Positions 1 to 16,084 of a DNA stretch of 64,000 nt are shown one piece after another. Source of the DNA: an uncultured Candidatus Saccharibacteria bacterium (GTDB lineage: Bacteria > Patescibacteriota > Minisyncoccia > Phycocordibacterales > UBA1550); the NCBI GenBank assembly GCA_964642305.1, contig CAZXOE010000003.1, forward strand, positions 33,685 to 97,684, in the 5' to 3' direction. How positions within the stretch are numbered: position 1 is the first letter of the stretch; each line of letters begins with the position of its first letter. A model generated the notes under the pieces. It saw only the letters and a program-made list of their open reading frames with translations, made no database searches and was not told where the DNA came from. A program made the translations under genes and the position numbers.

Positions 1-134
1 TGTCCAGCTGCTGCTGGAATAGGGATGTTCGCAAGCAATCGGAAGATTACAAGAGCAACTAGTATGAATAACACACGACGACGGAGCGTAGAATCCTCTA
101 CAATCATCTTTAGTTTACGAAGTAGTGTTTCCAT
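1..134 (-). CDS. secY: Preprotein translocase SecY, N-terminal fragment (runs off window)
   Basis: rc of 1-134 translates METLLRKLKMIVEDSTLRRRVLFILVALVIFRLLANIPIPAAAAG, a SecY N-terminus; position downstream of rplO as in spc operons. Confidence 0.6.
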   Translation of the reverse strand, partial: METLLRKLKMIVEDSTLRRRVLFILVALVIFRLLANIPIPAAAG

Positions 135-195
135 GGAATTTTGTATCTTCTTTTGTATTTCCTTTCTGAACCTTACAAACTTTTAACTTTATAAA

Positions 196-642
196 CTACT
201 TCACCGTTCCTCCGAGCTTCTCCACTGCAGTCTTTGCAGACTCTGAAATCAAACATCCGCGAATATCAAGCTTTTTATCAAACTCGCCTGACGCAAGAAT
301 CTTCACCATAGGAACTTTGTTACCCTTCTTCTCTACGAGCGCGTGCTCAAGAAGAACCTTTGGAGTAATACGGTCACCATTCTTAAATTCAAGATTTAGT
401 ATTCCTAGATTAATAACAACGTAGTGAGTAAACTCGGTTTTAAACTGATTTCTTGACACACCTTCACCACGAAGCTTTGGAAGCTTCTTGATGGTGTCAC
501 GCATCTGAGGACGCTTGCGGTGCCCTGCGCGAGCGTCCTGGCCTTTTGTTCCACGACCAGAAGTCTTGCCACGCTTGCCTCCACGGCCAACAACCTTCTT
601 TACGGCGCGGGGCTTTCTTGTTTTTACTTCGTGTGCTTGCAT
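196..642 (-). CDS. rplO: 50S ribosomal protein L15
   Basis: ORF translation: Gly/Arg-rich N-terminus and KILASGE...DIRG C-terminus typical of L15; operon position. Confidence 0.9.
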   Translation of the reverse strand: MQAHEVKTRKPRAVKKVVGRGGKRGKTSGRGTKGQDARAGHRKRPQMRDTIKKLPKLRGEGVSRNQFKTEFTHYVVINLGILNLEFKNGDRITPKVLLEHALVEKKGNKVPMVKILASGEFDKKLDIRGCLISESAKTAVEKLGGTVK

Positions 643-659
643 AGTAGTATTATTAAAAT

Positions 660-1370
660 TTACTTGGTCTCTGCTACTGATTTTACTCCCTTTGCGCGAA
701 GCTGTTTCAGCGCTTTGATAGTAGCGCGCGCATTGTTCAATTTGTTCTTTGAACCAGAAAGAATCTTTGCGCGAACATCTTTGATACCAGCGAGCTCTAG
801 CACGTTTCGCACAGAGCTTCCTGCCACCATACCGCGACCTTTTGCTGGCATAATCATCACTGTTGATGAAGACTCTTTTGCAGATACTTCATGAGGAATC
901 ATCATTCCGCTTGTGAGAAGAACCTTGATCATGTTCTTCTTTGCGTTCTTTGTTGCCTTTTCAATAGCGAGAGCAGTATCTGAAGCCTTGCCAATACCTA
1001 CACCCACAGAACCCTTGCGATTGCCTGCAACGAGCGCTACAGAAAATGCAAAACGTCGTCCTCCGGCAACCACACGGGTTACACGACGAATCTGAATGAG
1101 CTTGTTGTCAAACTCTGGCTTCACACGCTCAAATGTTCCACCGCGACCTCCGCGTGGTGAACCCTTGCCTGAACCACCGCGACTAGCGCCTGCCCCTCCT
1201 CTTGCGGGTCCGCGACCAGTTGATGAGCCTCCGCGAGCGCCACCAAAAGATGGGCGTGAAGATGGAGTGCGAGCGCGTCCAGGACGTGAATCTGCTGATT
1301 CAGGAGCGGTCGTTGCTGGCGCAACGGGTGCCGTTGTCTCTGTATTCTGTTGTGTGTTTGTTTCTGTCAT
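660..1370 (-). CDS. rpsE: 30S ribosomal protein S5 with low-complexity N-terminal extension
   Basis: S5 core motifs (RRVTRVVAGGRRFAFSVALVAGN, AIEKATKNAKKN); only 18 nt from rplO, so no rpmD (L30) between them. Confidence 0.9.
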   Translation of the reverse strand: MTETNTQQNTETTAPVAPATTAPESADSRPGRARTPSSRPSFGGARGGSSTGRGPARGGAGASRGGSGKGSPRGGRGGTFERVKPEFDNKLIQIRRVTRVVAGGRRFAFSVALVAGNRKGSVGVGIGKASDTALAIEKATKNAKKNMIKVLLTSGMMIPHEVSAKESSSTVMIMPAKGRGMVAGSSVRNVLELAGIKDVRAKILSGSKNKLNNARATIKALKQLRAKGVKSVAETK

Positions 1371-1384
1371 AAAATTATTAAAAT

Positions 1385-1747
1385 TTAGAATACTAGTCCT
1401 CCCTCGCGTGCGCCATCCGCGAATGCGCGAACGCGTCCTGTGAAGATAAATCCGCCTCGGTCAAACACTACTGCTGAAAGACCTTTAGCTTTTGCGCTCT
1501 TTGCGAGAGCCTCACCAGCTAGCTTTGCGCTTTCAGTCTTCGTCATCTTTTTCTTGGGGCCCTTGAGACCCATGTCTGAAACAGCTGAAAGTGTCAGGCC
1601 TTTTGTGTCGTCAATAATCTGAGCATAAATATAACTGTTTGACTTGAAAATAGCGAGGCGTGGGCGCTCTGAAGTACCCGAAACTTTCGCTCGGATGCGG
1701 TTGTGGCGACGTGCGCGCTGTCCTTTTTTTGTTAATTTAATAGTCAT
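1385..1747 (-). CDS. rplR: 50S ribosomal protein L18
   Basis: RPRLAIFKSNSYIYAQIIDD motif, spc-operon order. Confidence 0.9.
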   Translation of the reverse strand: MTIKLTKKGQRARRHNRIRAKVSGTSERPRLAIFKSNSYIYAQIIDDTKGLTLSAVSDMGLKGPKKKMTKTESAKLAGEALAKSAKAKGLSAVVFDRGGFIFTGRVRAFADGAREGGLVF

Positions 1748-1758
1748 GATCTTTAAAA

Positions 1759-2292
1759 TTAGGCGGACTTCTTACCCTGCTTGCGACGGATGACTTCCGT
1801 AGAGTAGCGGATACCTTTGCCCTTATAAGGCTCTGGTTTCTTTTTTGCGCGAATCTGCGCCGCAAACTGCCCTACAGACTCCTTGTTGATTGACGATAGT
1901 GTGAGCGTATTCTTTTCCTGAAGAACCTTTACATCTTTTGGAATATCCATAGGAACCTTGTGAGAAAAACCAAGGCTAAAAATGAGTACTGTGGGCTGAG
2001 CCTCAACCTTGTAGCCAACACCTTCAATAATAAGCTTCTTTTCAAATGCCTTGTTCACGCCAGCAACCATGTTCACGAGATGCGATGCGTATGTCCCCCA
2101 AAGAGCGCGAGCTTCCTTTGAATTATTCTTTGGAGCAAACACTATCGTGTTTCCTTCTACTTTGATATCTACTGGGCCAGCAAAGTCACGTGAAAGCTCA
2201 CCCAAAGGGCCCTTCACTGTAATTACAGTGTCGTTTTGAGTTACCGTCGATCCTTCTGGAATCGTTACGCCTTTTTTTCCAATTCGTGACAT
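1759..2292 (-). CDS. rplF: 50S ribosomal protein L6
   Basis: MSRIGKKGVTIPEGSTV... L6 signature, operon order. Confidence 0.9.
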   Translation of the reverse strand: MSRIGKKGVTIPEGSTVTQNDTVITVKGPLGELSRDFAGPVDIKVEGNTIVFAPKNNSKEARALWGTYASHLVNMVAGVNKAFEKKLIIEGVGYKVEAQPTVLIFSLGFSHKVPMDIPKDVKVLQEKNTLTLSSINKESVGQFAAQIRAKKKPEPYKGKGIRYSTEVIRRKQGKKSA

Positions 2293-2309
2293 ATAAGTAT
2301 GAGTAATTA

Positions 2310-2699
2310 TTACCAGATCCTAAAAAGAGCCTCACCTCCAACTCGACCTTTCTTTGCTTCATTGCCTGTCATAATGCCCTTTGGTGTAGATATAACCATC
2401 AAACCAAACCCATTTTTTACTGGCTTGATTTCATCCGCGCCAAGATAAAAACGGCGTGAAGGCTTTGACATACGATCTACTTCAGAAACTCGTGGAGATT
2501 TTCCCTCGTACGCAACACCAACCTCAAGGGTCTTTTGAACCTTCTTGCCCTTCTTTGCATAAGAAGTAATGTACCCCTCAGCAAAGAGAACCTTGGCGAT
2601 AGCTTCTTTTACATTAGAAAAAGGCATCTCGACAATGTCCTTGCCGGCTTTACCTCCGTTCTTAATGCGAATAAGCATGTCTGCGATTGGGTCGTGCAT
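2310..2699 (-). CDS. rpsH: 30S ribosomal protein S8
   Basis: DPIADMLIRIKNG S8 N-terminal signature. Confidence 0.9.
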   Translation of the reverse strand: MHDPIADMLIRIKNGGKAGKDIVEMPFSNVKEAIAKVLFAEGYITSYAKKGKKVQKTLEVGVAYEGKSPRVSEVDRMSKPSRRFYLGADEIKPVKNGFGLMVISTPKGIMTGNEAKKGRVGGEALFRIW

Positions 2700-2711
2700 A
2701 ATAAATTGAAA

Positions 2712-2897
2712 TTACCAAGAAGACTTCTTTACTCCGGGGATCTTGCCGTCGTTTGCAAGCTCACGGAAACAAATACGGCAAAGGTCAAAATCGCGCATAT
2801 AACCGCGACGACGGCTACAATTAAAACAGCGACGCACAATACGTGAGCTGAATTTTGGCACCTTATTGGCGCGCGCGGTTACTGATGTTTTTGCCAT
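2712..2897 (-). CDS. rpsZ: 30S ribosomal protein S14, Zn-ribbon type (61 aa)
   Basis: CFNCSRRRGYMRDFDLCRICFRE C4 zinc-ribbon S14-type Z. Confidence 0.85.
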   Translation of the reverse strand: MAKTSVTARANKVPKFSSRIVRRCFNCSRRRGYMRDFDLCRICFRELANDGKIPGVKKSSW

Positions 2898-3037
2898 ATT
2901 GAAGTAGAATGCTGGGGTTTTGGCAATATCGCGCGCAAATTCTTTTGAAGACTATTGCTTGCGCTCAAGTCTTCAAAAGGAGGTGCGCGGATTGCTCAAA
3001 AAACCCACAGATGCATCCTAGCATATAGGGAAATATA

Positions 3038-3184
3038 GTCAACCCTCACACCTACTTTTTCATTATTGCATGGTGTTTTTAATATATTGCCTACAAAAAC
3101 TTCATATACCACTTAGTAGATAGGAATTTCTAGGCAAACTTGGAGCACCAAAAACACGATGAAAAAGTAGGTGTGGGGGTCAAC
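3038..3184. repeat. Palindromic MITE-like element, GGTGTGGGGGT family copy 1 (TIR gtcaaccctcacacctacttttt / aaaaagtaggtgtgggggtcaac)
   Basis: ~22-bp terminal inverted repeats around ~100 bp; the interior also pairs partly (ttttcat / atgaaaa). Confidence 0.6.
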
Positions 3185-3255
3185 AAAAAAGGCGCCTTTT
3201 TGAGACGCCCGTTTGGAATTGCTTTATGTTTTATTATTTTGTTGATTTTGGTTAC

Positions 3256-3507
3256 TTACGCGTGCAAACAACCTACTCCCCCGCCAAATGCGAGGAATGC
3301 CGGCCCACCGAATCGGCGCCCGTAGCTGTTTTCGTTGTCGCTATGGACACCATACAGGTGGACAGGGCGACCCTCAACAGCAAGCCAGTCGTTTGTTTCG
3401 CCCGGAAGACAGCTTGTGTCCAATGACAATCCGCTGTCCCCAGGTTTTGGAAATGGGAGCATTTGAAAACACTCTTTACCTACTATCTTTCTCGGCATAA
3501 TATACAA
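3256..3507 (-). CDS. Hypothetical protein (83 aa) in a locally GC-rich patch
   Basis: ORF only; AAAGGGG 10 nt upstream of ATG; no recognisable domain. Confidence 0.2.
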   Translation of the reverse strand: MYIMPRKIVGKECFQMLPFPKPGDSGLSLDTSCLPGETNDWLAVEGRPVHLYGVHSDNENSYGRRFGGPAFLAFGGGVGCLHA

Positions 3508-3677
3508 CCCCTTTTTGTTAAATTAAAGAACTCTTAACCATAGCCCCATGCCATAGTTAATTACCTTTCATTATACCATTTTAGATAATAAAACGCAATG
3601 GCGCCCGACAGTTTGACAAGAGTAATTTCTAGGAATAGTCTACATACAGCACAGTACAAATAACCAAGGAGAATGCG

Positions 3678-4211
3678 ATGCGCTACTTTATAGCACACAT
3701 TTTAGAGGATTATGTTGCAATATATCATAGCGCGCTTGCTGGCGAGCTTTCCACAGGGTTTGGTGTAAACGCAAGCGCTTCATTGTTTCCAGCACATATC
3801 ACAATCAAGGCGCCATTTAATATGGATGACGTGACAGAGATAAAAGAGGAGCTAAAGAAATTCGCCTCCACTCATTACGCGCCATCATTCACCATTCAGA
3901 ACTTCGGGCACTTTGGTGATAAAGTGATATTCCTTGATGTAGAGCGCAATTGTATGCTCTCTATTCTCGTATGGGATATACAAAACACCATAAAAAAGGT
4001 AACTGATCTAACCTGGGAGAAACACGAGCCATTGGAGATTCTCCATGTCACTATTGCAAAAAATTTTGACACGAAAAAATTTGATGCGATTTGGCATCGT
4101 CTACTGATGAAAAACTCTCCAACATTCAAATTATCATTTAACAATGTCACCCTTCTTCGTTTGGAAGATAATGCTTGGGTAGTAGACAGCGTCTACTACC
4201 TCAACAAATGA
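3678..4211 (+). CDS. 2H phosphoesterase superfamily protein (LigT / 2'-5' RNA ligase-like)
   Basis: Two H-x-T-x motifs (AHITIK and LHVTIA) spaced as in the 2H fold; followed by rho-independent terminator. Confidence 0.6.
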   Translation: MRYFIAHILEDYVAIYHSALAGELSTGFGVNASASLFPAHITIKAPFNMDDVTEIKEELKKFASTHYAPSFTIQNFGHFGDKVIFLDVERNCMLSILVWDIQNTIKKVTDLTWEKHEPLEILHVTIAKNFDTKKFDAIWHRLLMKNSPTFKLSFNNVTLLRLEDNAWVVDSVYYLNK

Positions 4212-4225
4212 TCTGCACTATACTC

Positions 4226-4256
4226 AAAAGCCGCCTTTCAGGCGGCTTTATTTATA
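4226..4256 (+). terminator. Rho-independent terminator after 2H phosphoesterase gene
   Basis: aaaagccgcc tttca ggcggcttt + T-run. Confidence 0.7.
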
Positions 4257-4369
4257 TTTTTGTAGAAATCGTGTGCTTTGTGACAGTGTGATGTTAAAAC
4301 ATTATATTATATATTTCTCTAAACAATTGGCTAAGGGGTGCATCCAGGAGTTTACATCTAGGATGTTTG

Positions 4370-4398
4370 CGTCCAAGACGTGAACTTGCTAGTTCAAA
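4370..4398 (+). repeat. 30-nt double-hairpin repeat, copy A (cgtccaagacgtgaacttgctagttca)
   Basis: Constant CGTCCAAGACGT + hairpin GAAyT-loop-ArTTC; shared by six loci. Confidence 0.6.
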
Positions 4399-4551
4399 GT
4401 CTGCTGATTCGGCCCAAGGCACAGATCTGCTGATTCGTAGCTGTCCTTACTTCATTCACATAATCTCTAGGGTTCTAAAGATTACAATATGCTGTTTCGA
4501 ATTCGCTTCTCATTCACCAGAATGACCTAAGGGTCGAGTACAAAAGCGTGG

Positions 4552-4580
4552 CTGAATTAGCAAATTCACGTCTTGGACGC
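4552..4580 (-). repeat. 30-nt double-hairpin repeat, copy B (inserted into loop of gcgtgg/ccacgc hairpin of the larger element)
   Basis: 28/28 identical to copy E at 57958; absent from the paralogous element at 19082. Confidence 0.6.
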
Positions 4581-4650
4581 TGAGACCACGCGGTATTGAC
4601 CTTTATTAGCTCCTCGGCTCGGTACTGAAAAAGATTACTTTTTTTATCTT

Positions 4651-4678
4651 CGTCCAAGACGCGAATCTGGTGATTCGT
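4651..4678 (+). repeat. 30-nt double-hairpin repeat, copy C (gaatc-tggt-gattc stem variant)
   Basis: cgtccaagacgcgaatctggtgattcg. Confidence 0.55.
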
Positions 4679-4737
4679 CTACGTCGCTAATAAAAAGGCG
4701 ACCGTACGGTCGCCTTGGAATGTGAGCGCAATGAAAT

Positions 4738-5130
4738 TTATTGCACGCGAATGTGGTCAAAAAACTGCGGGTGCTTACGGAATGGTGTTTTGTTTTTGTT
4801 CACACTCTTGCTGTGGTGTGTGGCTGCGAATGCATCAGACCACAAATGACGAGAATGACGCGGGGCACCACGATGATGCAAATGAAGGAAAAAATGATCA
4901 TTGCCTGTGCTACCAAGACTGATTTCTGCTAAACTGCGGATCGCTGGAGATGCAGACTCTTCGCTCCTGTCCGGCATTTCCAAATTGCTGCCTTGTTCAC
5001 TTATCTCGCGAAAACATCCACGATCCTGCGCTTCCAAAAAGTCACCGCCATCATCATTTGGAACAACATATGGGGTTGAAACAAGGTGTCCGCTAAAGAC
5101 TTGTTGCACATCACTGCACATATCAAACAT
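4738..5130 (-). CDS. Hypothetical protein (130 aa)
   Basis: ORF only; no SD; no recognisable domain. Confidence 0.2.
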   Translation of the reverse strand: MFDMCSDVQQVFSGHLVSTPYVVPNDDGGDFLEAQDRGCFREISEQGSNLEMPDRSEESASPAIRSLAEISLGSTGNDHFFLHLHHRGAPRHSRHLWSDAFAATHHSKSVNKNKTPFRKHPQFFDHIRVQ

Positions 5131-5277
5131 TATTATCTCCCTATAAATAAAAGTACTGCGCCCATTACCGCAAACATCTACGGTAAACTATCTAAGATAG
5201 TACAACAAATGCAGGGTATATGCAAATAAAAACATGGCGACATACAGATCGCCATGTTTTTATTTGCATATATTCCT

Positions 5278-5823
5278 CTACTTCTTAAATGGAACTCCGA
5301 TAATATCAAAAAATGCCGTAGCTTCTTTTTTGTTCTTTGCAGTAGTCACAACAGTAACTGCTAAACCGAAAAGGTCTTTTATGTCCTCGTCAGAAACTTC
5401 TGGGAAAATTGTCTGCTCTTTTACGCCGAGAGTTACATTGCCCATTTCATCAATACTCTTTCGGTCATAGCCACGGAAGTCGCGAGTACGAGGGATTGCA
5501 ACATTGAAAAACTTGTCTAGGAAGCCTATCATACGCGCACCTCGGAGTGTTACCGCAACCCCAATCTTGTCGCCTTCGCGGAGCTTAAATGCAGCGATGG
5601 ACTTCTTTGCAGCGCGGAGCGAAGGCTTCTGTCCGGTAATCTTTGCAATGCGTCCCATTACCATTTCGTTGCGGTTCTTATCCTTTGCGCGTCCAGTTGT
5701 CGCGGACACAACCACCTTCACGAGACGAGGAGCGGCAAGCTTGGCCTTGTAGCCAAAATCTTTCTTCATCGCATCAAATGCGCCTGCTTGTTTTTCCTTT
5801 ACTGATTTAAATGCTGATTTCAT
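5278..5823 (-). CDS. rplE: 50S ribosomal protein L5
   Basis: L5 signature (KAKLAAPRLVKVVVS…TLRGARM…FPEV). Confidence 0.9.
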   Translation of the reverse strand: MKSAFKSVKEKQAGAFDAMKKDFGYKAKLAAPRLVKVVVSATTGRAKDKNRNEMVMGRIAKITGQKPSLRAAKKSIAAFKLREGDKIGVAVTLRGARMIGFLDKFFNVAIPRTRDFRGYDRKSIDEMGNVTLGVKEQTIFPEVSDEDIKDLFGLAVTVVTTAKNKKEATAFFDIIGVPFKK

Positions 5824-5839
5824 ATTATTAAAAATTGTT

Positions 5840-6007
5840 GATTTTTAAGGAGTAAGGCGACTATAAAAATCTCACCCAGCTCCTTCTTATTTTTGATTAC
5901 CTTACACTTTTTTTATCCCATATGCAAGTTCCCTGATGATTACAGGAGACTTATGGAATGAAGGGGCTGGGTTTGAAAATCACAGTCGCTTTCACTCCTT
6001 GATTTTC
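5840..6007. repeat. Structured intergenic inverted-repeat element filling the whole rplX–rplE spacer (two inverted ~45-nt units + CCCAGCCCC/GGGCTGGG stem)
   Basis: gatttttaaggagtaaggcgactataaaaatc…cacccagctcc // ggggctgggt…gaaaatcacagtcgctttcactccttgattttc; overlaps rplX stop codon. Confidence 0.65.
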
Positions 6008-6312
6008 TAAAGCTCTGAGCCACTTTTCTTTGTGACGCGAACATTCTTTCCGTCAATCTTTTTGATACCAACGCGTGTGCGCGCTCCCGTCTTTGGGTCC
6101 ACAACCATAACGTTCGAAGCATTGATAGGCATTGCCTTCTCAACAATCTGACCAGCCTTGCCCTTTGTGCGAGACTTCTCGTGAAGCTTTGAAATATTCG
6201 CGCCCTCTACTACCACGCGATTTACAGATGGAAGAACCTCAAGAATTTTACCCTTCTTTCCTTTATCCTTTCCTGTGGTCACGATTACGTTGTCTCCTTT
6301 TTTGAGTTTCAT
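6007..6312 (-). CDS. rplX: 50S ribosomal protein L24
   Basis: KKGDNVIVTTGKDKGKKG KOW motif. Confidence 0.9.
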   Translation of the reverse strand: MKLKKGDNVIVTTGKDKGKKGKILEVLPSVNRVVVEGANISKLHEKSRTKGKAGQIVEKAMPINASNVMVVDPKTGARTRVGIKKIDGKNVRVTKKSGSEL

Positions 6313-6337
6313 AGTAGTAGAGAGTTAATAATATTAA

Positions 6338-6709
6338 TTAAAGCACTTCTGGCGCAAGTGAGCCGATTTTGTTGTAGCCAATTTCAGTAATCTCGCGAGG
6401 GATTGGTCCAAAAATACGACTTCCTTTTGCCTCCTTCTTTGCCTTGTCAACAACAATAACAGCGTTGTCGTCAAAACGAATATACGAACCATCCTTGCGA
6501 CGATAGGCATTGCGAGTACGAACAACAAGCCCAGTGAGAACATCCTTCTTCTTTACAGACTTGCGAGGCTCTGCAACCTGCACAGAGAAAACAACCAAGT
6601 CGCCAATCATTGCGTAGCGCTTCTTTGAGCTTCCTAGCACTTTGAACACGCGTCCGATTTTCCCGCCGGTGTTGTCTGCTATTTTTACGATTGTTTGTGG
6701 TTGAATCAT
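6338..6709 (-). CDS. rplN: 50S ribosomal protein L14
   Basis: MIQPQTIVKIADNTG L14 N-terminus. Confidence 0.9.
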   Translation of the reverse strand: MIQPQTIVKIADNTGGKIGRVFKVLGSSKKRYAMIGDLVVFSVQVAEPRKSVKKKDVLTGLVVRTRNAYRRKDGSYIRFDDNAVIVVDKAKKEAKGSRIFGPIPREITEIGYNKIGSLAPEVL

Positions 6710-6734
6710 GGTTTTATTGTTACTTACTCAATTT

Positions 6735-7013
6735 TTATGCAGATTGTTTTCCGATGACCTTGAATGATTTGTCTTTTGAAATTGGACGACATTCCTCAAT
6801 AACTACTTTGTCTCCTTCTTTATATGCTCCTGCTTCGTCGTGCGCTTTATATTTCTTTGAGATGTTCATAAACTTTCCATACTTTGGGTGCTTTACGAAA
6901 CGATTTACAAGGACGGTAACAGTCTTCATCATTTTGTCAGACACTATAACTCCCTGAAGTTGTTTTCGTGTTGTATTGCTTGTTTCAGCAGTTTTTTTTG
7001 TAGTTTTTTCCAT
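6735..7013 (-). CDS. rpsQ: 30S ribosomal protein S17
   Basis: [16 protein letters not shown]…HDE S17 pattern. Confidence 0.85.
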
Positions 7014-7023
7014 ATTAGTAATG

Positions 7024-7236
7024 TTATGCGGTTACAGCTTTGCTCTTTCGTACATTCTCCTCCGTAAGAATACGCGCGATTTCCCTGCGCGCAGTCATAT
7101 GAGCTTTCACATTCTTTTTTGCGGAGCCTGCAATGTCAAAACGAAATGCGCGAACAGTCTCCCTTTTTTCTGCAAGGAGTTTTACCAAATCTTCGGCGCT
7201 TGTTTTTTTAATTTCTTTCATAAAAGTATTTTGCAA
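7024..7236 (-). CDS. rpmC: 50S ribosomal protein L29
   Basis: 70 aa, [17 protein letters not shown] pattern, operon order. Confidence 0.85.
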
Positions 7237-7246
7237 TTATATAAAA

Positions 7247-7678
7247 CTAGGCAGTCTCTACACGGCGAACGATGCGTGTCTTCAAAGGAAGCTTTGCTCC
7301 GGCTTTCTTGAGCGCCTTTACCGCCGTAGCTTCATCAACACCATCAACTTCAAAAAGCATACGACCTGGACGCACTTCAAACACGTATCCATGGAGCTCT
7401 CCTTTACCTTTACCCATACCTACTTGCGCTCCCTTCTGTGTCCATGGTCTGTCCGGGAAAATGCGGATCCACATCTTGCCAACTTTTGTGATAGTGCGAA
7501 CGATAGCCTTGCGTGATGCTTCAATTTGGTTTGACTTTACACGAGCCTGTGTTTCAGCCTTGAGTCCATATGAACCGAAAGCAAGCGTGATACCACGAGT
7601 TTCTGGTGCAGCAAGTTTAGCCTCGCTCTTGCGAGCGTTTTGCCACTTTCTGTATTTTACTTTCTTTGGGAATAACAT
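7247..7678 (-). CDS. rplP: 50S ribosomal protein L16
   Basis: MLFPKKVKYRKWQ…RMGKGKG L16 signature. Confidence 0.9.
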   Translation of the reverse strand: MLFPKKVKYRKWQNARKSEAKLAAPETRGITLAFGSYGLKAETQARVKSNQIEASRKAIVRTITKVGKMWIRIFPDRPWTQKGAQVGMGKGKGELHGYVFEVRPGRMLFEVDGVDEATAVKALKKAGAKLPLKTRIVRRVETA

Positions 7679-7687
7679 GATGGTGTA

Positions 7688-8383
7688 TTAAAAATTTGTC
7701 TGTTCTGGAACTACAAGCTTCTTCTTGCTGTCTGCAAAAATCTGACCCTTGTAAACCCAAACCTTCACGCCGATTGCGCCGTATGGAAGACGCGCAGTGT
7801 TTTTTGCGTAGTCAATGTCTGCGCGGAATGTTTGAAGAGGAATGCCTCCGCGACGAATCTGCTCGTAGCGCGCCATTTCAGCGCCACCCAAGCGACCTGA
7901 GATTGCGATACGCGCTCCTTTTACATCGCGGTTCGCCATAACCTTCTCAATAGTCTGTTTCAAAACCATACGGAAAGGAAGACGCTTTTCAAGGCCTTCG
8001 CAAACCATCTCCGCAACAACTGCTGCGTTGCCTTCAGGTGAACGCACTTCTTCAACATCAAGTTTGAAATCCTTTGGAATATCAAGCTTTAGGCGGAACG
8101 CTTCCTTCAAAATATCGTTCTTTAGCTTCACAGAGCCCTCTCCTGCGCGACCGATAACCATACCAGGGCGAGCTGTCTTAATGAGGATACGAAAAGTTTT
8201 TGCGTTGCGTTCAATTTCAATGCCTGCAATGTAGCTACCACGAAGACGCTTGTCCAAGAACTTGCGAATGAGGACATCACCCTTGAGAAACTTTTTAAAA
8301 TCATCTTTTGCGCCAAACCAACGCGACTTCCAGTCACGGATGATTCCCAAACGATGCGCATATGGATGTACGATGTGTGTCAT
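7688..8383 (-). CDS. rpsC: 30S ribosomal protein S3
   Basis: KH domain + S3 C-terminal domain motifs (GIKVWVYKG). Confidence 0.9.
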   Translation of the reverse strand: MTHIVHPYAHRLGIIRDWKSRWFGAKDDFKKFLKGDVLIRKFLDKRLRGSYIAGIEIERNAKTFRILIKTARPGMVIGRAGEGSVKLKNDILKEAFRLKLDIPKDFKLDVEEVRSPEGNAAVVAEMVCEGLEKRLPFRMVLKQTIEKVMANRDVKGARIAISGRLGGAEMARYEQIRRGGIPLQTFRADIDYAKNTARLPYGAIGVKVWVYKGQIFADSKKKLVVPEQTNF

Positions 8384-8384
8384 G

Positions 8385-8855
8385 TTATTTTGTTTTCTTT
8401 ACGGCTGTTTTTGCTTTAGGTTTTGCAGCTGCTTTCACCTTTGCAAGAGCAGTTTTCTTTGAAACTTTCTTTGTCTCACCTTCTACTACAACCTCTTTCT
8501 TCAAGGCCTTCTTAGAAGGTGACACGTCAGCGCTTGCAATAAGCTCAATCATAATATGGCTTGTGTGCTTGTGAATAGGGTGCGCTGAGCCGTGTGACTT
8601 TGGCATTGAACGCTTGAGGATTGTACCCTGGTCAACACGAACTTCTTTTACAAAAAGGTCTTCGAGAGCGATGCCGTCATTCTCCTTTGCATTTGCAATA
8701 GCAGACATCAAAAGCTTCTTCATTGGGCCCGACGCGCGCTTTGGAAGCACGTCAAGCTCCACCAAGGCGCGAGGAACGGTCTTTCCTTTGATAAGATTTG
8801 CTACAAGGCGTACCTTGCGTGGCGCTTGACGATAGCTTCTGAGGATTGCTTTCAT
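8385..8855 (-). CDS. rplV: 50S ribosomal protein L22 with Lys/Ala-rich C-terminal extension
   Basis: L22 core, then KKALKKEVVV…AKTAVKKTK tail. Confidence 0.9.
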   Translation of the reverse strand: MKAILRSYRQAPRKVRLVANLIKGKTVPRALVELDVLPKRASGPMKKLLMSAIANAKENDGIALEDLFVKEVRVDQGTILKRSMPKSHGSAHPIHKHTSHIMIELIASADVSPSKKALKKEVVVEGETKKVSKKTALAKVKAAAKPKAKTAVKKTK

Positions 8856-8864
8856 TGTAGTATA

Positions 8865-9212
8865 TTATTTTTTCTTAGCGGCAGGCGTTTCAGACTTGGC
8901 GGCCTTGGCAGCAGTGATTTCTGCTTCTTTCTTCTTCTGCTCAAGCTCCTTCTGCATCTTGCCTCCGTGTCTTACGAATTTCTTCGTAGGAGAAAACTCT
9001 CCGAGTCTGTGCCCCACCATATCCTCGGTCACTCGGACCTCTAGATGTGTCTTACCGTTATACACGCCAAAAAGGAAGCCTACCATTTCAGGCGAAATCT
9101 GACTTGAACGAGACCAAGTCTTAATTATTTCAGCAGTTTGAGCGCTTTTACCCACCAATTTCTCCAAGAGTCTTTGGTCAATAAATGGTCCTTTTTTGAG
9201 TGATCGTGTCAT
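8865..9212 (-). CDS. rpsS: 30S ribosomal protein S19 with C-terminal extension
   Basis: MTRSLKKGPFID…GHRLGEF S19 signature. Confidence 0.9.
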   Translation of the reverse strand: MTRSLKKGPFIDQRLLEKLVGKSAQTAEIIKTWSRSSQISPEMVGFLFGVYNGKTHLEVRVTEDMVGHRLGEFSPTKKFVRHGGKMQKELEQKKKEAEITAAKAAKSETPAAKKK

Positions 9213-9238
9213 TTGGTAAAATAAAATATGTGAAAAAC

Positions 9239-9347
9239 GACCCAGCCCTTACTTTGCTGCGTAAAACTTAACTTACTACAAGCAACACTGAAACTGCATA
9301 CTATACTAATTCTCTATATTATGCAACAAAGTAGGGGCTGGGTTCGA
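9239..9347. repeat. Long-range inverted repeat (cccagcccttactttg / caaagtaggggctggg) upstream of rpsS
   Basis: Same CCCAGCCC/GGGCTGGG word as ribosomal-protein spacer elements. Confidence 0.5.
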
Positions 9348-9379
9348 TACGCATCTTATCAGATTGAAGAATAATGTCA

Positions 9380-9418
9380 AATCGGGGGTTCTGGGCAATA
9401 CCCAGAACCCCCGATTTT
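9380..9418. terminator. Bidirectional hairpin terminator ending the inserted cassette before rpsS
   Basis: atcgggggttctggg caata cccagaacccccgat, 15-bp perfect stem + T-run. Confidence 0.75.
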
Positions 9419-9432
9419 AAGTGACTTTTCGA

Positions 9433-10485
9433 CTAGAACTGCCAGAATTTCGTCTTTGGCTTGCAGTCTGCTGGAGAGTTTGTAAGATTTTCCCCGGCAG
9501 CAACGTCACAGGTTCCATTATTAACAGAAGGAACACATGCCCCTCCAGAGAGAATTTGGAGTGTTGGGCACGTATTACAACCAGGAACATTTGTTGTTCC
9601 ACCATTGCATATCAGGGAACCAAATTCGTTACCAGGAGTAGTAGTACCACCAGTACCTGAACAACCTGTACCACTACAAGAGTAGCATTGCAAGGATACG
9701 GTATTATAAAAATCACCATTTGCGCATTGATTACATGCGGAGGGATTAATTGCGCCATTACTGCAATTAAATTGAGGCCCCTGTACAGAATAAGAGCTTC
9801 CATCCTGCGCTGTGCCAGAGAAATTAACCCACCCGATAACACTAACGCCAATAGGATCACTATCACCACTTGGCAAAACCTTTGCCCCTCCCCACGCATA
9901 ACCAGAAAACTTGCCGTCAGAAGGGTTAATCTTAACGGGGTTCGTCCATGTGTCAGAAAGTTTAATCCATCCATCCCAGCCACCAGCATTGCTATTCTGT
10001 GCACACTGAGCCGGAACAAGGTTGCCTAGTGCGTCCTGAGTACAAGCAGCGAGCGCGCGCGCCCAACCAGTTACATTACCTGTTACTAAATCAACTTTTG
10101 CGATTGCTCCAGCCGTTAGTCTGTATGGGTCTGCCGGTGGATTACCTGTCCTTGATCTGTCAAAGCTTATCCAACCGATTCCCCCCTGATCTGGGTTTGG
10201 CGCTGTGTCAATGTCCGATGACCAAGCGTTCCCTGAAAAATCCCCTGTATCTGGGTCAAGATTTACACTATACGGACTTCCATCAGTTGCAGTACCAGAA
10301 AAACTGATCCAACCAACCGTGTCAGTCCATGCGTACCCAGTAAGTGCAGTTGGCGCCGCCTCTGCCTTCGGTATTGCTACAGAACCAGGGTTTACCGTAT
10401 ACGCCACATAGCCAAGGCCCAATGCAATAAAGAACGCGAATACGTTACGCGCAGAGTGAATTGTAAATGTTTTTATGTTCATCAC
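9433..10485 (-). CDS. Secreted repeat protein (4x G[YN]AW…GWISF repeats, Cys-rich C-terminus), inserted in ribosomal-protein operon
   Basis: N-terminal TM/signal; ~4 internal repeats; 16 Cys in the last 110 aa. Confidence 0.6.
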   Translation of the reverse strand: MMNIKTFTIHSARNVFAFFIALGLGYVAYTVNPGSVAIPKAEAAPTALTGYAWTDTVGWISFSGTATDGSPYSVNLDPDTGDFSGNAWSSDIDTAPNPDQGGIGWISFDRSRTGNPPADPYRLTAGAIAKVDLVTGNVTGWARALAACTQDALGNLVPAQCAQNSNAGGWDGWIKLSDTWTNPVKINPSDGKFSGYAWGGAKVLPSGDSDPIGVSVIGWVNFSGTAQDGSSYSVQGPQFNCSNGAINPSACNQCANGDFYNTVSLQCYSCSGTGCSGTGGTTTPGNEFGSLICNGGTTNVPGCNTCPTLQILSGGACVPSVNNGTCDVAAGENLTNSPADCKPKTKFWQF

Positions 10486-10592
10486 GTTAGAGGTTTATTT
10501 AGAAATCTTCTAATAAAAATTTATACCGTCATCTGCTTCCTTGTCTTTGTTGAAAAAACAGCGGAATCTCTAACAGGATTCATTTAAGTATT

Positions 10593-10624
10593 ATACCTCC
10601 ACGCCTATTTTTTGCATAGGATAT
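10593..10624 (-). promoter_or_regulatory. Sigma70-like promoter (TATGCA-N17-TATAAT) with conserved GCGTGGAGG spacer, ~108-nt leader
   Basis: rc reads tatgcaaaaaataggcgtggaggtataat; near-identical motif upstream of next gene. Confidence 0.5.
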
Positions 10625-10670
10625 TCAGTTGCTTTTTACAAGAATGCTGTGGATAAGTGCTTAACAAGCA

Positions 10671-10985
10671 TTACTTCCCTTTTACTTTTTGTTCTAGGCG
10701 ATTGAATCGAATTCGCAGATCGTCAAATTCATATCTTGGCACAAAACGATCACCGAGATTCAATACATCCTGCCTTGTGGCACTCAAATTGTCTTCAACA
10801 CTAACCAACCTGTCCTCAACACTAACCAACCTCTCTTCAACACTAACCAACTTGTCCTCAACTTTTACTATTCTGTCCTCAACTCTGTCAAATCCTTTTG
10901 CAACCATAATAGCCAAGTTATCAATAGTAACGGCGATGTCATCAATTGTCACTTTTTTATTAGTTTTATTGGTTGTTTTTTTCAT
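10671..10985 (-). CDS. Small coiled-coil protein with heptad repeats (encoded by ~5 tandem 21-nt repeats at ~10797-10905)
   Basis: VEDRLVSVEDRLVSVEERLVSVEDKLV. Confidence 0.5.
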   Translation of the reverse strand: MKKTTNKTNKKVTIDDIAVTIDNLAIMVAKGFDRVEDRIVKVEDKLVSVEERLVSVEDRLVSVEDNLSATRQDVLNLGDRFVPRYEFDDLRIRFNRLEQKVKGK

Positions 10986-11022
10986 ATCTCAATTATACCC
11001 ACGCGCTTATCTTTTGCAAAGT
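10986..11022 (-). promoter_or_regulatory. Consensus promoter TTTGCA-N17-TATAAT-N6-ATG (leaderless transcript)
   Basis: rc reads tttgcaaaagataagcgcgtgggtataattgagatATG. Confidence 0.6.
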
Positions 11023-11131
11023 GAATTTCTAGGTGTTAGTCTATAAATCGCAACATTATTCACAAACTAGACCACACAAAAACCAAAAGCATGATGTCCT
11101 CACTTACCCCATTTCTATTTTTATTTTTATC

Positions 11132-12064
11132 TTATATCGGGCAACAATAGAGCTTAAATGAGTTTGTGTCTGGGTGATAATGTGGACCGTTTATTCCATT
11201 AACATACGTACCGGCGGGGCAAAAAACCGAACCGCCAGCGTACACACCCGTCTGCGCAGTCCAGAAGCAAGCTCCACCAGCTCCCCCAGCCGTACTCAAA
11301 CACTTTCCTGCTGTCGTACAAACATCTGTTACAGTGACCTTTCCGTTAGCCAACTCTATTCCTCCAGTATTTGTCCCAGAGGAATTAAGAGTACGCAATG
11401 AGATAGTGTTATCTAATAATCTTATATAAGATCCGCCTCTTGTATTTGTTACTCTCCCGTAATAAGGGCTTCCATTAATATTGTTCCCTATCCCGACCCC
11501 TCCCCATGTCCATCCTGGTTCGCTTGCCCACAGGCTCATAACAGCCGTGTTGACGCCATCAATTCCTTGACCATAATGATCAGAAAACAATCGTGCTTGA
11601 GTTGAAGAATGGTCTCCCTTGATTTCCAGTTTTTTCTGTGGCGCCGTTGTTCCGATGCCAACACTACCGCCGTTTGGATTCAAAACTAAATTGTAATTCG
11701 TGTTGTCATTAGTATAGCGTGGTTGTATCCAGCCATATTGAGGAGTGACATCAGCAGTGACTCCCATTGACATCTGAACACCGGTACCAGTGCCACCAAG
11801 CATTATGCTTCCATTTGGTGTCGCAGAATTTGATGGAGCGTTGATGGAACCTGCTGTGTGTAGAGGTGCTTGTGGTGTTGTAACTCCAATCCCCACTCTG
11901 CCAGCCTTCGTCTGCGCGGTTGCGCTCGTATTTATTGGCGCGGAAACATTCCCTGCAGGAGGAGATTGTGTCGGTGCTGTCCACGCATACACGTACGAAA
12001 GTCCAAAGGAAAGAACGACTGCTAGAGTGAGAATTTTAAGTGGTGAAAAGATTTTGTTGGTCAT
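11132..12064 (-). CDS. Secreted protein (signal peptide, VGIG(T/V)TxPQ repeats, Cys-rich C-terminus)
   Basis: Signal peptide MTNKIFSPLKILTLAVVLSFGLSYVYA; internal GRVGIGVTTPQ / GSVGIGTTAPQ repeat. Confidence 0.55.
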   Translation of the reverse strand: MTNKIFSPLKILTLAVVLSFGLSYVYAWTAPTQSPPAGNVSAPINTSATAQTKAGRVGIGVTTPQAPLHTAGSINAPSNSATPNGSIMLGGTGTGVQMSMGVTADVTPQYGWIQPRYTNDNTNYNLVLNPNGGSVGIGTTAPQKKLEIKGDHSSTQARLFSDHYGQGIDGVNTAVMSLWASEPGWTWGGVGIGNNINGSPYYGRVTNTRGGSYIRLLDNTISLRTLNSSGTNTGGIELANGKVTVTDVCTTAGKCLSTAGGAGGACFWTAQTGVYAGGSVFCPAGTYVNGINGPHYHPDTNSFKLYCCPI

Positions 12065-12074
12065 GTTTTATATA

Positions 12075-12677
12075 TTATTGGATTTGTATCTCACTTACTA
12101 GAAACTCTTTGGACATTTTTATATTTTCTACGGCGGTAACATTGAGTACGGCTCCTACTGTGATGCTTGCTATATCAGTCATAGTTTTTGTTGATGGCGG
12201 TGGTGGTGTTGCAGGCAAAGAACCAGCTTTGGCTGATTGCATATTTTTTATAAGTACGTCCATTTCTGCCTTTAACACTTCTGGTGTTTTTTGTGTATGT
12301 TTAAAAATTTTTGTGTCAGCAGTGACTGTAACGATACGGTCAGCAAGCGCTGGGTCGTCAAAAGGGTTTTGAGATTCTGTGTGAATAGTGATTTTATTTC
12401 CACTGATAGCAGTGACTGAACCAGAGAGTGTGCGAATGTCGTCGGGAGTTTTAAATATCATTCCCATTGGGCTTTCTAGAACTCTATTTTTTGCCGCATC
12501 AAAGCCTGCTTGATAGGTGTTATTACCTGCGCTCACAGGTGCTTGTTTAAAGTATACAAATGTTGCGCCTACTCCGACAATGATGCCGACTAAAACTGCT
12601 CCAATGTACTGCGTGGTGTGTGACGGGCACACAAGTGGTTGTTGTTGATCCATAATTACAAGTATAACACCTTTCAA
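12075..12677 (-). CDS. Membrane-anchored hypothetical protein (single N-terminal TM)
   Basis: TM YIGAVLVGIIVGVGATFVYF; 10 nt upstream of the previous gene, likely co-transcribed. Confidence 0.5.
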   Translation of the reverse strand: MKGVILVIMDQQQPLVCPSHTTQYIGAVLVGIIVGVGATFVYFKQAPVSAGNNTYQAGFDAAKNRVLESPMGMIFKTPDDIRTLSGSVTAISGNKITIHTESQNPFDDPALADRIVTVTADTKIFKHTQKTPEVLKAEMDVLIKNMQSAKAGSLPATPPPPSTKTMTDIASITVGAVLNVTAVENIKMSKEFLVSEIQIQ

Positions 12678-12701
12678 AATTTACAAATGAACAATGCTGT
12701 G

Positions 12702-12747
12702 GATAACAAAACCCCGCCTGTCAGCTGACAGGCGGGGTTTTGTTATC
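12702..12747. terminator. Perfect 21-bp hairpin between rplB and the inserted cassette
   Basis: gataacaaaaccccgcctgtcag|ctgacaggcggggttttgttatc. Confidence 0.6.
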
Positions 12748-12750
12748 TTT

Positions 12751-12812
12751 ACCACAGCCCTTCAAGAAGAGGCTGGGTAGAAAAATTATTGTCGCTTCGC
12801 TCTTTAATTTTT
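12751..12812. repeat. Ribosomal-protein spacer-type repeat unit just downstream of rplB (ccacagccc…ggctgggtag + aaaaattattgtcgcttcgctctttaattttt)
   Basis: Aligns with 15579-15670 unit (GGCTGGGTAG-…TTGTCGCTTCGCTCTTTAA). Confidence 0.55.
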
Positions 12813-12813
12813 A

Positions 12814-13653
12814 CTACTTCGAGCGCTTGGTCTTGCGACGGGCGACGATGAGGTTGTTTGAGTACTTCTTTGGTGAACGTGTCTTGCGACCTCCTGTTAC
12901 CTTTCCGTACTTTGTCTTTGGGCGCTTTGTTCCGCGTCCTTGTGCTCCTTCACCTCCACCGTATGGGTGATCAACTGGGTTCTTTGCGCTTCCACGAACT
13001 GTTGGGCGAATGCCGAGCCAACGATTGCGTCCTGCTTTTCCAATATTGCGGTGCTTGTATTCCTCGTTTGAAACAGCGCCTATTGATGCCCACACATTTT
13101 CTGAAACCTTTCGGATTTCTCCAGACGGCATCTTTAAATGGCTCTGACCTCTGTCGTTTGCGACCACTTCAGCGTAGTTTCCAGCTGAGCGAGCGATGCG
13201 CGCGCCGCCGTTTGGCTGAAGCTCAATGTTGTATACAAATGTTCCAACAGGAAGCTTGCGCAAAATTGTGCGGTTACCTGCTTTAAGAGGAGCGTCCTCG
13301 GCTGTAATAACTGTGTCGCCTACCTTAATTCCTTGAGGGAGGAGATTATAACGACGCTCTCCGTCTGCGTAGCAAATAACACCAATGAAACCTGAGCGGT
13401 TTGGATCATACTCAACGGTCTCAACCTTTGCTGGGATATTAATCTTATCAAAACGAAAATCAATTTCGCGGAACGAGCGCTTGTGACCACCACCCTTGTG
13501 CTGTGTAGTGATGCGACCAAATGCATTGCGTCCAGAACCACGGCGGAAGCCTGTTGTGAGTGCCTTCAAAGGCTCGTTGGTTGTGAGAACGCCACGATAC
13601 GACACAATGGCTGTCTGGCGATTCGACGGTGTTGTTGGTTTAAACTTTTTCAT
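12814..13653 (-). CDS. rplB: 50S ribosomal protein L2
   Basis: L2 signatures (GGGHKRSFREIDF, PYGGGEG). Confidence 0.9.
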   Translation of the reverse strand: MKKFKPTTPSNRQTAIVSYRGVLTTNEPLKALTTGFRRGSGRNAFGRITTQHKGGGHKRSFREIDFRFDKINIPAKVETVEYDPNRSGFIGVICYADGERRYNLLPQGIKVGDTVITAEDAPLKAGNRTILRKLPVGTFVYNIELQPNGGARIARSAGNYAEVVANDRGQSHLKMPSGEIRKVSENVWASIGAVSNEEYKHRNIGKAGRNRWLGIRPTVRGSAKNPVDHPYGGGEGAQGRGTKRPKTKYGKVTGGRKTRSPKKYSNNLIVARRKTKRSK

Positions 13654-13659
13654 GTGGTT

Positions 13660-13835
13660 GATTTTTAAGGAGCAGGGCGACTATAAAAATCACCACCCGC
13701 CCCACTTTTGTGCCCCTGTATCTTACTATAATTTATAACTATTGCAAATTTTTTCTTTCTCTACCCTAATCACGAAATTCATAACAAAAGTGAGGAGGGT
13801 CTAGTAAACCATAGTCGTTTCACTCCTTGATTTAC
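13660..13835. repeat. Structured inverted-repeat element filling the rplW–rplB spacer
   Basis: gatttttaaggagcagggcgactataaaaatc … gtaaaccatagtcgtttcactccttgatttac in inverted orientation; overlaps rplW stop. Confidence 0.65.
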
Positions 13836-14188: not shown

Positions 14189-14199
14189 GATTGTACGAG

Positions 14200-14880: not shown

Positions 14881-14885
14881 GATAT

Positions 14886-15524: not shown

Positions 15525-15578
15525 TCTCTCGATGGAGGGGTTGTTGGTATTTTTTACTTACTTAATAATCACAATTTA

Positions 15579-15670: not shown

Positions 15671-15672
15671 TA

Positions 15673-16047: not shown

Positions 16048-16084
16048 GGGATTTTAATAGAACTACGAACGAGACGTTCGGTGC

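Follow-up and report, generated by a model that had tools for sequence, protein, structure and literature searches.

Long spacers between ribosomal protein (r-protein) genes in the 64,000-nucleotide (nt) stretch of DNA analysed here (the window; positions 33,685 to 97,684 of contig CAZXOE010000003.1) are filled by copies of an element made of three hairpins, H1, H2 and H3. We describe a family of such elements whose hairpin units covary, which are present at a site in one genome and absent from it in related ones, which occupy many different gene junctions, and in which GIY-YIG nuclease genes are associated exclusively with the H2 loop. The reading that we favour, and hold to be reasonably likely, is that the window copies are miniature derivatives, devoid of an open reading frame (ORF), of a hairpin-bracketed mini-GIY-YIG mobile cassette of Paceibacteria, and that they are co-transcribed with their operon. 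The pattern of presence and absence and the many different sites support mobility of the element, as far as sequence comparison can tell, and a role of the nuclease in its spread is suggested by association only.

A repeated hairpin unit in intergenic DNA

The contig belongs to the Yonathbacteria/Paceibacteria and derives from a metagenome of groundwater type. All genes of the S10/spc r-protein cluster lie on the minus strand of the window, and the L2 protein of the contig is 91–97% identical to those of Candidatus Yonathbacteria and Nomurabacteria metagenome-assembled genomes (MAGs). An initial annotation, drawn from the sequence of the window, had pointed to copies of a hairpin unit in four spacers (rplX–rplE, rplW–rplB, rpsJ–rplC and after rplB), and these are borne out by motif counts: the core AGGAG-N3-7-CGACT has six matches in the 64 kb compared to 0.3 expected from shuffled sequences (including 5848(+), 5984(−), 13668(+), 13813(−) and 15647(−)), and the 32-mer at 5840–5871 is found again at 13660–13691 with two mismatches, where none is expected.

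We built a covariance model from ten units and ran it over the window, where it recovered these ten and nothing else of weight. Ten copies of this unit of roughly 33–45 nt stand at six sites, when none is expected by chance. All ten strong matches are intergenic and overlap coding DNA by 1–3 nt of a stop codon at most; the unit is strictly intergenic, and the random occurrence in coding DNA that the annotation had considered is not observed. Its four sites all hold units, but the list was incomplete, as four more units form two full elements outside the S10/spc cluster (23449–23567 and 41125–41241). In a full element, an H1 unit after the upstream stop codon is followed by a G+C-rich stem, H2 (ACCC..GGGT), and then by an inverted unit, H3, which ends 0–3 nt before the next ATG in most copies and 16 nt before it at rplE. 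The extent first given for the rplX–rplE element, 5840–6007, matches exactly the interval that opens with the 3′ unit and closes with the 5′ unit, and the long-range stem proposed there is found as H2, with related stems at 15582–15631, roughly 12748–12778 and 9240–9343. The genes, spacers and elements concerned are the following, where labels such as L010 denote fetched loci, aa stands for amino acids and UTR for untranslated region.

6007–6312, minus: rplX
5824–6006: rplX–rplE spacer, 183 nt
5278–5823, minus: rplE, with its ATG at 5821–5823
rplW–rplB spacer: 181 nt, with the rplB ATG at 13651–13653
rpsJ–rplC spacer: 148 nt
5975–6007, minus: H1 of the rplX–rplE element, 5′ hairpin unit GAAAATCAAGGAGTGAAAGCGACTGTGATTTTC, 48.8 bits; its first base, G, is the last of the rplX stop codon TAG
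5874–5972, minus: H2 of the rplX–rplE element, G+C-rich stem of ACCCAGCCCC (5963–5972) paired with GGAGCTGGGT (5874–5883), enclosing about 80 nt without an ORF
5840–5871, minus: H3 of the rplX–rplE element, inverted unit, 53.8 bits; the plus strand reads as the consensus GATTTTTAAGGAGTAAGGCGACTATAAAAATC, the mRNA as ...CUCCUUAAAAAUC
5824–5839, minus: retained native spacer, TTTTTAATAAT + AACAA, between H3 and the rplE ATG; TTTTTAATAAT is the whole spacer of relatives L010 and L012
13654–13841, minus: complete element filling rplW–rplB, with H1 at 13804–13835, H2 arms at about 13790–13800 and 13694–13704, and H3 at 13660–13691; it ends ...ATCAACCAC immediately 5′ of the rplB ATG
15582–15676, minus: half element after rpsJ, with H1 (15632–15676) and an H2 hairpin (15582–15631) and no H3; the stop codons TAGTAG lie within the H1 outer stem
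12748–12818, minus: degenerate unit (12775–12818) and short H2-like hairpin after the rplB stop codon
23449–23567, plus: short ORF-less element forming the 5′ UTR of a 68-aa gene, probably rpmB (L28), with H1 at 23449–23490, H2 ACCCGCCC..GGCGGGT and H3 at 23521–23567
41125–41241, plus: short ORF-less element in the 5′ UTR of nusA (ATG 41242), 3′ of a perfect TTGACA-N17-TATAAT at 41063–41092
9240–9343, minus: H2-type hairpin ACCCAGCCCC..GGGCTGGGT that lacks units and lies shortly before rpsS; it may be a remnant
19071–19110, minus: weak degenerate unit ATGAGCGAAGCGAATT, then ACCCTGCGG..CCGCAGGGG, downstream of fusA (18.2 bits, E = 0.34)

Within the unit core, A-U and G-C pairs are followed by tandem G.A/A.G and then by G-C and Y-G pairs that close a GAA(A) loop. 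AGGAG, which the annotation had placed in the loop, is instead paired within the stem, next to the tandem G.A/A.G. The elements before nusA and the putative rpmB are 75% identical to each other and 70–71% identical to elements at the same sites in other genomes; the 68-aa gene has a TIGR00009 match (E = 1.7e-6) that falls below the curated cutoff. When the window was scanned with Rfam 15, only four tRNAs reached the gathering threshold; at an E-value threshold, positions 1–17000 gave no meaningful sub-threshold matches, and no ribozyme core was found in the elements by these scans.

Empty junctions in close relatives

For spacer measurement we fetched 80 species-level relatives, centred on rplB. 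Those with 87–97% L2 identity have 2–24 nt between rplW and rplB and 11–18 nt between rplX and rplE, and thus the spacers of 181 and 183 nt in the window are lineage-specific insertions. The whole 11-nt rplX–rplE spacer of relatives (TTTTTAATAAT) survives in the window 3′ of the insert, between H3 and the ATG, and rplX has lost its last codon, its stop now being the TAG at the foot of H1. The element is present at one site and absent from the same site between closely related genomes, and the conservation at a syntenic position by which an r-protein autoregulatory leader would be recognised is not found in these relatives. The comparison also tells against the ribosome- or r-protein-binding regulator that the annotation had proposed, for which short spacers in relatives, as seen at both rplW–rplB and rplX–rplE, had been named as contrary evidence.

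In other species of Paceibacteria, covariance-model matches occur at tuf–rpsJ, rpsJ–rplC, rplC–rplD, rplD–rplW, rplW–rplB, upstream of rpsS, rpsS–rplV, rpsQ–rplN, rplN–rplX and upstream of rpsN, with most units flush with a stop or start codon, and L012 carries five elements within its ribosomal cluster. Other Paceibacteria have structured spacers of about 105–315 nt that do not match the unit at r-protein junctions (rplW–rplB in L042, L074 and L080; several junctions in L021, L036 and L056), so that other element families may use the same kind of site.

Covariation within local hairpins

As the annotation had suggested, we folded the spacers and checked them for covariation. They fold better than shuffled sequences (z = −7.0, −4.0, −8.5 and −8.3). 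In an alignment of 120 units to the model, pairing is seen in 89.4% of cells compared to 65% in shuffles and 37–49% with slid partners, and double-sided changes in the unit hairpin number 429 compared to 148 in shuffles; an alignment fitted to the model favours its structure, though the differences seen here are wide. The tandem G.A/A.G hardly varies, and H2 occurs with at least eight different arm sequences, every one with a matching partner. Covariation of the A-T stems is confined to single units and does not link the H1 and H3 of an element, and thus what is conserved is a set of local hairpins rather than one long rod. We accordingly set aside the rod of H1 paired with H3, which is the minimum-energy fold: each unit is complementary to itself, but the A-T stem of H1 does not match that of H3 in the same element. 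Counts of G.U compared to A.C (23 and 12 in H3, 9 and 15 in H1) do not show which strand folds.

Known structural motifs gave no match. A K-turn is ruled out by the lack of a 3-nt bulge beside the tandem G.A, and an integron attC site or a tRNA-like minihelix with a CCA end at H3 was rejected as the end words mismatch and the bases covary within the stem. Scans of the rplX–rplE and rplW–rplB spacers returned no sigma-70 promoter at the threshold of the tool and no intrinsic terminator (a G+C-rich hairpin with a T run) inside either. A weaker motif, TTGCAA-N16/17-TAAGAT, lies in the H2 loop of both r-protein elements of the window and of three related ones; at rplX–rplE it reads TTGCAT-N17-TAAGGT and has no match in the promoter scan. 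Such motifs are found in 15 of 37 elements in sense and 9 of 37 in antisense, so the family is not characterised by an internal promoter.

A GIY-YIG nuclease gene in the H2 loop

At one locus (L167), a 74-aa ORF lies inside the H2 loop. A GIY-YIG profile built from this ORF and its local relatives, run on the 2.1 Mb of fetched loci, found eight GIY-YIG ORFs, all eight within 100 nt of a unit. The unit-associated ORFs match Pfam PF01541 above the curated cutoff, and their nearest solved relatives are the UPF0213 proteins BH0048 (PDB 1zg2) and EF2693 (PDB 1ywl), with E = 2e-13 and 5e-11 for the ORF type of L146 and E = 0.016 for that of L117. With 73–74 aa, the ORF is a catalytic domain only, without a DNA-binding domain. 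Both at L117 (nusG–rplK) and at L204 (upstream of recA) it starts right after the 5′ arm of H2 and has its stop codon in the 3′ arm, while H1 and H3 lie outside the ORF-bearing H2, flush with the neighbouring genes; the L204 contig also has, between recA and efp, a second element, which is ORF-less and shares the H2 base. The AAGGAG of H1, tried as a Shine–Dalgarno (SD) site of the GIY-YIG ORF, lies about 37 nt from its ATG and was rejected as such.

As an independent check, we used one ORF as the query against a protein database and examined the contigs of six homologues. All six are co-oriented with their neighbours, about 50 nt after the upstream gene and 50–135 nt before the next (the exception being a Logan contig without the pilin gene). 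They stand upstream of recA, between nusG and rplK (three look-ups), upstream of mraZ and between pilC and a pilin gene, and the covariance model finds flanking units in four of the six. The lengths of paired elements are bimodal, with 116–247 nt in those without an ORF (n = 38) and 332–333 nt in another three, roughly 332 nt being the length with a 73–74-aa GIY-YIG ORF. No cargo other than GIY-YIG was found in the paired elements examined, and no transposase-like ORF between or next to unit pairs in the fetched loci, whose interiors are either ORF-less or GIY-YIG. Full-length relatives thus hold the ORF in an intergenic slot between conserved host genes, a slot that the window copies fill without one.

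Gene boundaries occupied in metagenomes

A pattern scan of public metagenomes gave at least 120 loci. The counts and contexts in this paragraph are those among the matches listed. About 35 units are of the H3 type, with an outer stem that stops 0–3 nt short of the ATG of a gene. According to Pfam, the genes 3′ of H3 are nusG (three times), nusA, rpsG and ftsZ (twice each), and recA, dnaK, groEL, rpoC, fusA, cysS, clpB, rplP, rplT, rpsK, rplK, rplF and a penicillin-binding protein (PBP) gene; reading of N termini adds ftsX (twice), groES, efp, nusB, rplX, rpmB and yebC. Most of these are core expression, chaperone and division genes. H1-type units come after a stop codon, one recurrent set overlapping the nusG stop in the nusG–rplK spacer, and solo units lie directly after tRNA genes or, inverted, directly before one. 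The polarity of the unit is uniform: its outer end always faces the gene, whether this is a start, an end or a tRNA, and thus the polarity is one of the DNA and not of the transcript.

H3 is more conserved than H1, and its outer stem covaries and contains the A of AUG in about half of all aligned units. Nor is occupancy restricted to r-protein genes, as the element also precedes nusA, nusB, nusG, rpoC, recA, ftsZ, ftsX, groES/EL, dnaK, clpB, cysS and the PBP gene.

Solo units are also found beside sequences like the 3′ half of a tRNA, which at L126 duplicate part of the neighbouring tRNA gene. In the window, part of the 3′ end of a tRNA gene at 59656–59727 (minus) is repeated after the gene (about 59491–59520), and this copy adjoins a unit-like hairpin, GAGTTCTTGTGAGTGAAACGAACTAGAAACTC, at 59514–59545; L126 has the same layout, with a consensus unit beside the duplicated tRNA 3′ half. 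The arrangement at 59491–59727 has the appearance of a tRNA gene that received a small insertion.

The hairpin core occurs in other flank classes as well (L115, L150, L154, L199 and other metagenome loci): after GACCTAATTTT repeats with AATGGAAATACTCTTGTGGT following, nested in a CCAGGTGGGGGCGTGCCGC..GTGGGGTTAAAG palindrome, and ahead of an 80-aa UPF0213-type GIY-YIG ORF (L146 and L166). The core therefore seems to be wider than the three-hairpin element.

A proposed mobile cassette and its alternatives

In the reading that we favour, a complete cassette comprises H1, the 5′ arm of H2, a 73–74-aa UPF0213-like GIY-YIG ORF, the 3′ arm of H2 and an inverted H3, co-oriented between two host genes and flush with the upstream stop and downstream start codons. 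The nuclease, supplied in cis or in trans, would drive its spread, either by cutting empty junctions that are then copied from the filled allele (intronless homing), or in a transposon-like manner, by structure-specific action on the hairpin ends. The latter is attractive since the nuclease has no DNA-binding domain and the ends are strongly conserved in sequence. ORF-less copies may arise through deletion of the ORF. Once co-transcribed, the element would fold into three local hairpins and stay compact, and the A-rich 3′ arm of H3 (UUAAAAAUCAACC-AUG) would supply the initiation region of the downstream gene, so that insertion could be tolerated in essential operons; we suspect that the element carries features serving host expression, of which this arm would be an example. 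AGGAG and CUCCUU would in this case be the conserved core of the element ends and not an SD or anti-SD signal. More tentatively, and with clear doubt, we put forward a new class of bacterial mobile element, in which a UPF0213-like GIY-YIG protein of about 73 aa, a catalytic domain alone, recognises hairpin ends with tandem G.A by their structure and moves itself and ORF-less miniatures into stop–start junctions of core operons, while the three hairpins of the transcript keep the operon expressed, an intron-like neutrality without splicing; if true, this would also be the first biological role for the UPF0213 family.

Several observations weigh against a mobile cassette. The nuclease lacks a DNA-binding domain, which makes homing of the classical, sequence-specific type doubtful. 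In 84 kb of this genome (the window and 20 kb more of the contig) we found no GIY-YIG ORF, so a trans-acting source has to be assumed. The comparison of filled and empty sites gave neither a target-site duplication nor a common target word, and the window copies are 66–75% identical to one another, which excludes a recent burst of copying. Furthermore, the start-adjacent copies from metagenomes, about 35 in number, have their H3 0–3 nt away from the ATG, the same downstream genes are met in more than one genome (among the matches listed, nusG three times and ftsZ, rpsG, ftsX and nusA twice each), and other genomes retain the elements before rpmB and nusA at these very sites, with compensated changes in the stems.

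The last three observations also fit the main alternative, a selected cis-acting RNA module that would serve as 5′ UTR or intercistronic leader of conserved, highly expressed genes, and to which we give a low probability. H1–H3 would act on the adjacent AUG, controlling initiation there or the processing or stability of the mRNA, for example by masking the start codon or through an RNase III cut in H2, and the GIY-YIG gene would have entered the H2 loop secondarily, as homing-endonuclease genes invade intron loops. The covariation of the outer H3 stem and its inclusion of the A of AUG in about half of the units, the predominance of core expression, chaperone and division genes downstream, and the stronger conservation of H3 than of H1 all speak for such a role, and since this genome seems to depend on starts without an SD site, many of them leaderless, a start-proximal signal of an unusual kind is conceivable. 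Nevertheless, the closest relatives lack the element at the same junctions and occupancy of junctions is patchy; solo units abut tRNA genes, either in sense behind the 3′ end or inverted ahead of the 5′ end, with a polarity that tracks gene boundaries in the DNA; and since H3 reads as the reverse complement of H1, the mRNA has U.C/C.U there in place of the stabilising tandem G.A. A nuclease gene is the only cargo ever found, and the recent rplX–rplE copy has its H3 16 nt from the ATG.

The annotation had also offered a family of repeats like the repetitive extragenic palindromic (REP) sequences, and this part of its proposal stands in so far as dispersed palindromic units form inverted doublets in transcribed spacers. 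A repeat of the ordinary REP/REPIN kind, or a miniature inverted-repeat transposable element (MITE), moved by a transposase encoded elsewhere (RAYT/HUH or DDE) and with the GIY-YIG ORF as an unrelated passenger, would account for imperfect palindromes that are strictly extragenic and transcribed and for the solo units and half elements, and two window copies even open with GTAG, the hallmark of REP sequences. We find it quite improbable all the same, as GTAG is not general among the units, filled sites show no target-site duplication compared to empty ones, unit pairs have no transposase-like ORF between or beside them, with interiors that are ORF-less or GIY-YIG, and GIY-YIG homologues chosen by protein similarity alone prove to be bracketed by the same units. 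Least probable, and in our view highly so, is that the annotation's SD or anti-SD mimic, or a boxA-like site, binds ribosomes, an r-protein such as S8, or NusB–S10 for feedback on r-protein operons. AAGGAG is indeed complementary to the canonical anti-SD, mRNA-sense H3 GCUCCUUAAAAAUCA resembles boxA GCUCUUUAACAA and lambda nutL CGCUCUUAAAAAUUAA, and the rplX–rplE junction is where S8 acts in the Escherichia coli spc operon; but AGGAG is paired inside the hairpin, the likeness to boxA exists in one of the two unit orientations only, Rfam leader families give no match, the rplW–rplB and rplX–rplE junctions of close relatives do not conserve the element, and it is not confined to r-protein or Nus genes. 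AGGAG and CTCCTT are two strands of one conserved hairpin core, which also flanks the GIY-YIG gene.

Translation starts and other features of the window

The annotation had noted that r-protein genes mostly lack SD sites, which holds for most of them; some other window genes have sites of the GGAGG type (3678, 26902 and 61304). Extended −10-like boxes (TGnTAnnnT) end 6–8 nt 5′ of the ATG at many genes (for example, 10671, 12075, 24802, 33659, 36494, 56379, 57735 and 58521), which suggests widespread leaderless mRNAs in this genome. The 16S rRNA 3′ end at L126, a unit-bearing contig of the candidate phyla radiation (CPR) from an organism different from that of the window, reads ...GGAUUAAUUCC and lacks the usual CCUCC anti-SD.

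A block just upstream of rplC (15525–15580), AAAATACCAACAACCC...GGTTGCAATGGTTACCG.TATG, is conserved in the rpsJ–rplC spacers of L004–L019 whatever else they hold, and may be a conserved leader or a mis-set rplC start. Between rplB and rpsS, window 9433–12677 (minus) has four ORFs (350, 104, 310 and 200 aa) without Pfam or NCBIfam match, the 104-aa ORF containing four to five tandem 21-nt repeats, CAACCTGTCCTCAACACTAAC, at 10785–10889. This gap is flanked in the window by the unit and small hairpin at 12748–12818 and by the H2-type hairpin at 9240–9343; in relatives it varies from a few nt to 8.9 kb (1.4–8.6 kb in the closest). The rplE–rpsN gap (2900–5277, 2.4 kb; 0.5–2.4 kb in relatives) holds a 130-aa ORF of no known family and, on the opposite strand, a gene for a LigT-like 2′-5′ RNA ligase (3678–4211). 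Perfect palindromes with the look of bidirectional terminators lie downstream of rplE (5217–5272, 24 + 24 nt) and downstream of the rplB-proximal unit (12702–12747, 23 + 23 nt), and a separate family of 26–33-nt repeats, GCGTCCAAGACGTGAA..., is found at 1275–1303, 4369–4396, 4547–4580 and 4651–4683. Ribosomal protein S5 (660–1370) has 236 aa, with an N-terminal extension of about 85 aa ahead of the Pfam S5 domain; the S5 gene of L163 has a similar Arg/Gly-rich extension.

Implications

Long structured spacers in CPR r-protein operons could easily pass for leaders or for regulators of a riboswitch-like kind; those studied here are repeat insertions, to be masked or annotated as such. That conserved hairpin ends go with a GIY-YIG gene of 73 aa points to a selfish cassette of an undescribed kind in the most conserved operons of streamlined genomes with almost no spare intergenic DNA, and it offers a testable function for UPF0213-like mini GIY-YIG proteins. 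The insertions also raise the question of how an essential gene such as rplB or rplE is translated, in an organism largely devoid of SD sites, after about 170 nt of structured RNA breaks the coupling to the upstream gene.

Relation to known systems

In the searchable literature on repeats, palindromes, MITEs and GIY-YIG proteins of CPR, Parcubacteria and Patescibacteria, we found no description of the element; it joins known themes (free-standing GIY-YIG genes, REPIN-like doublets and transcribed MITEs) in a form that we did not find described. Two comparisons concern its site and its protein. The S8 translational operator of the E. coli spc operon is also a structured RNA at the rplX–rplE junction, whereas the element is not conserved there in close relatives and stands at unrelated genes too. 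Mini GIY-YIG proteins of the UPF0213/YhbQ type, such as BH0048 and EF2693, are of similar size and likewise single domains; these two were deposited as hypothetical proteins, and we know of no mobile context for the solved UPF0213 proteins.

The REP/REPIN–RAYT systems share with the element imperfect palindromes of 30–45 nt, single or in inverted doublets, that are extragenic and co-transcribed, and a small protein gene flanked by the same units. Inverted doublets of imperfect palindromes in extragenic DNA are thus found here as well, whereas the conserved 5′ GTAG occurs in few copies and the sole flanked ORF in the fetched loci is a GIY-YIG gene and not the Y1/HUH transposase of the RAYTs; moreover, the units of the element are separated by a long G+C-rich stem and lie flush with stop and start codons. 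MITEs such as the Correia elements of Neisseria and the ERIC sequences of enterobacteria measure roughly 100–200 nt and have inverted ends, a location in transcribed operon spacers and long RNA hairpins. The element is like them in size, inverted ends, transcribed-spacer location and hairpin folding, but it has no TA or other target duplication in filled compared to empty sites, its ends are covarying hairpins, and its autonomous form has a nuclease and not a DDE transposase, no transposase-bearing parent having been found in the fetched loci.

As in the homing-endonuclease ORFs of group I introns, the ORF sits in the apical loop of a stem in a structured, transcribed element, and ORF-less versions coexist with it; unlike these introns, the element is intergenic, has no ribozyme core and gives no sign of excision from RNA. 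The free-standing GIY-YIG genes (seg) of T4-like phages, which spread by intronless homing, resemble it in occupying an intergenic slot between conserved genes, co-oriented with them, in being present or absent between close relatives and in lying within long polycistronic transcripts. Seg proteins have roughly 200 aa or more and carry DNA-binding domains, whereas the ORF of the element, with its 73–74 aa, is the catalytic domain alone. The seg genes are not known to have a bracketing pair of conserved inverted hairpins, and ORF-less miniatures of them, scattered over many junctions, are not described. RNA hairpins do occur around the endonuclease start site in T4-like phages (PMC2988022), and the seg genes are a precedent for homing into empty junctions (PMC2988022), there in a phage and here in the core operons of a cellular CPR genome.

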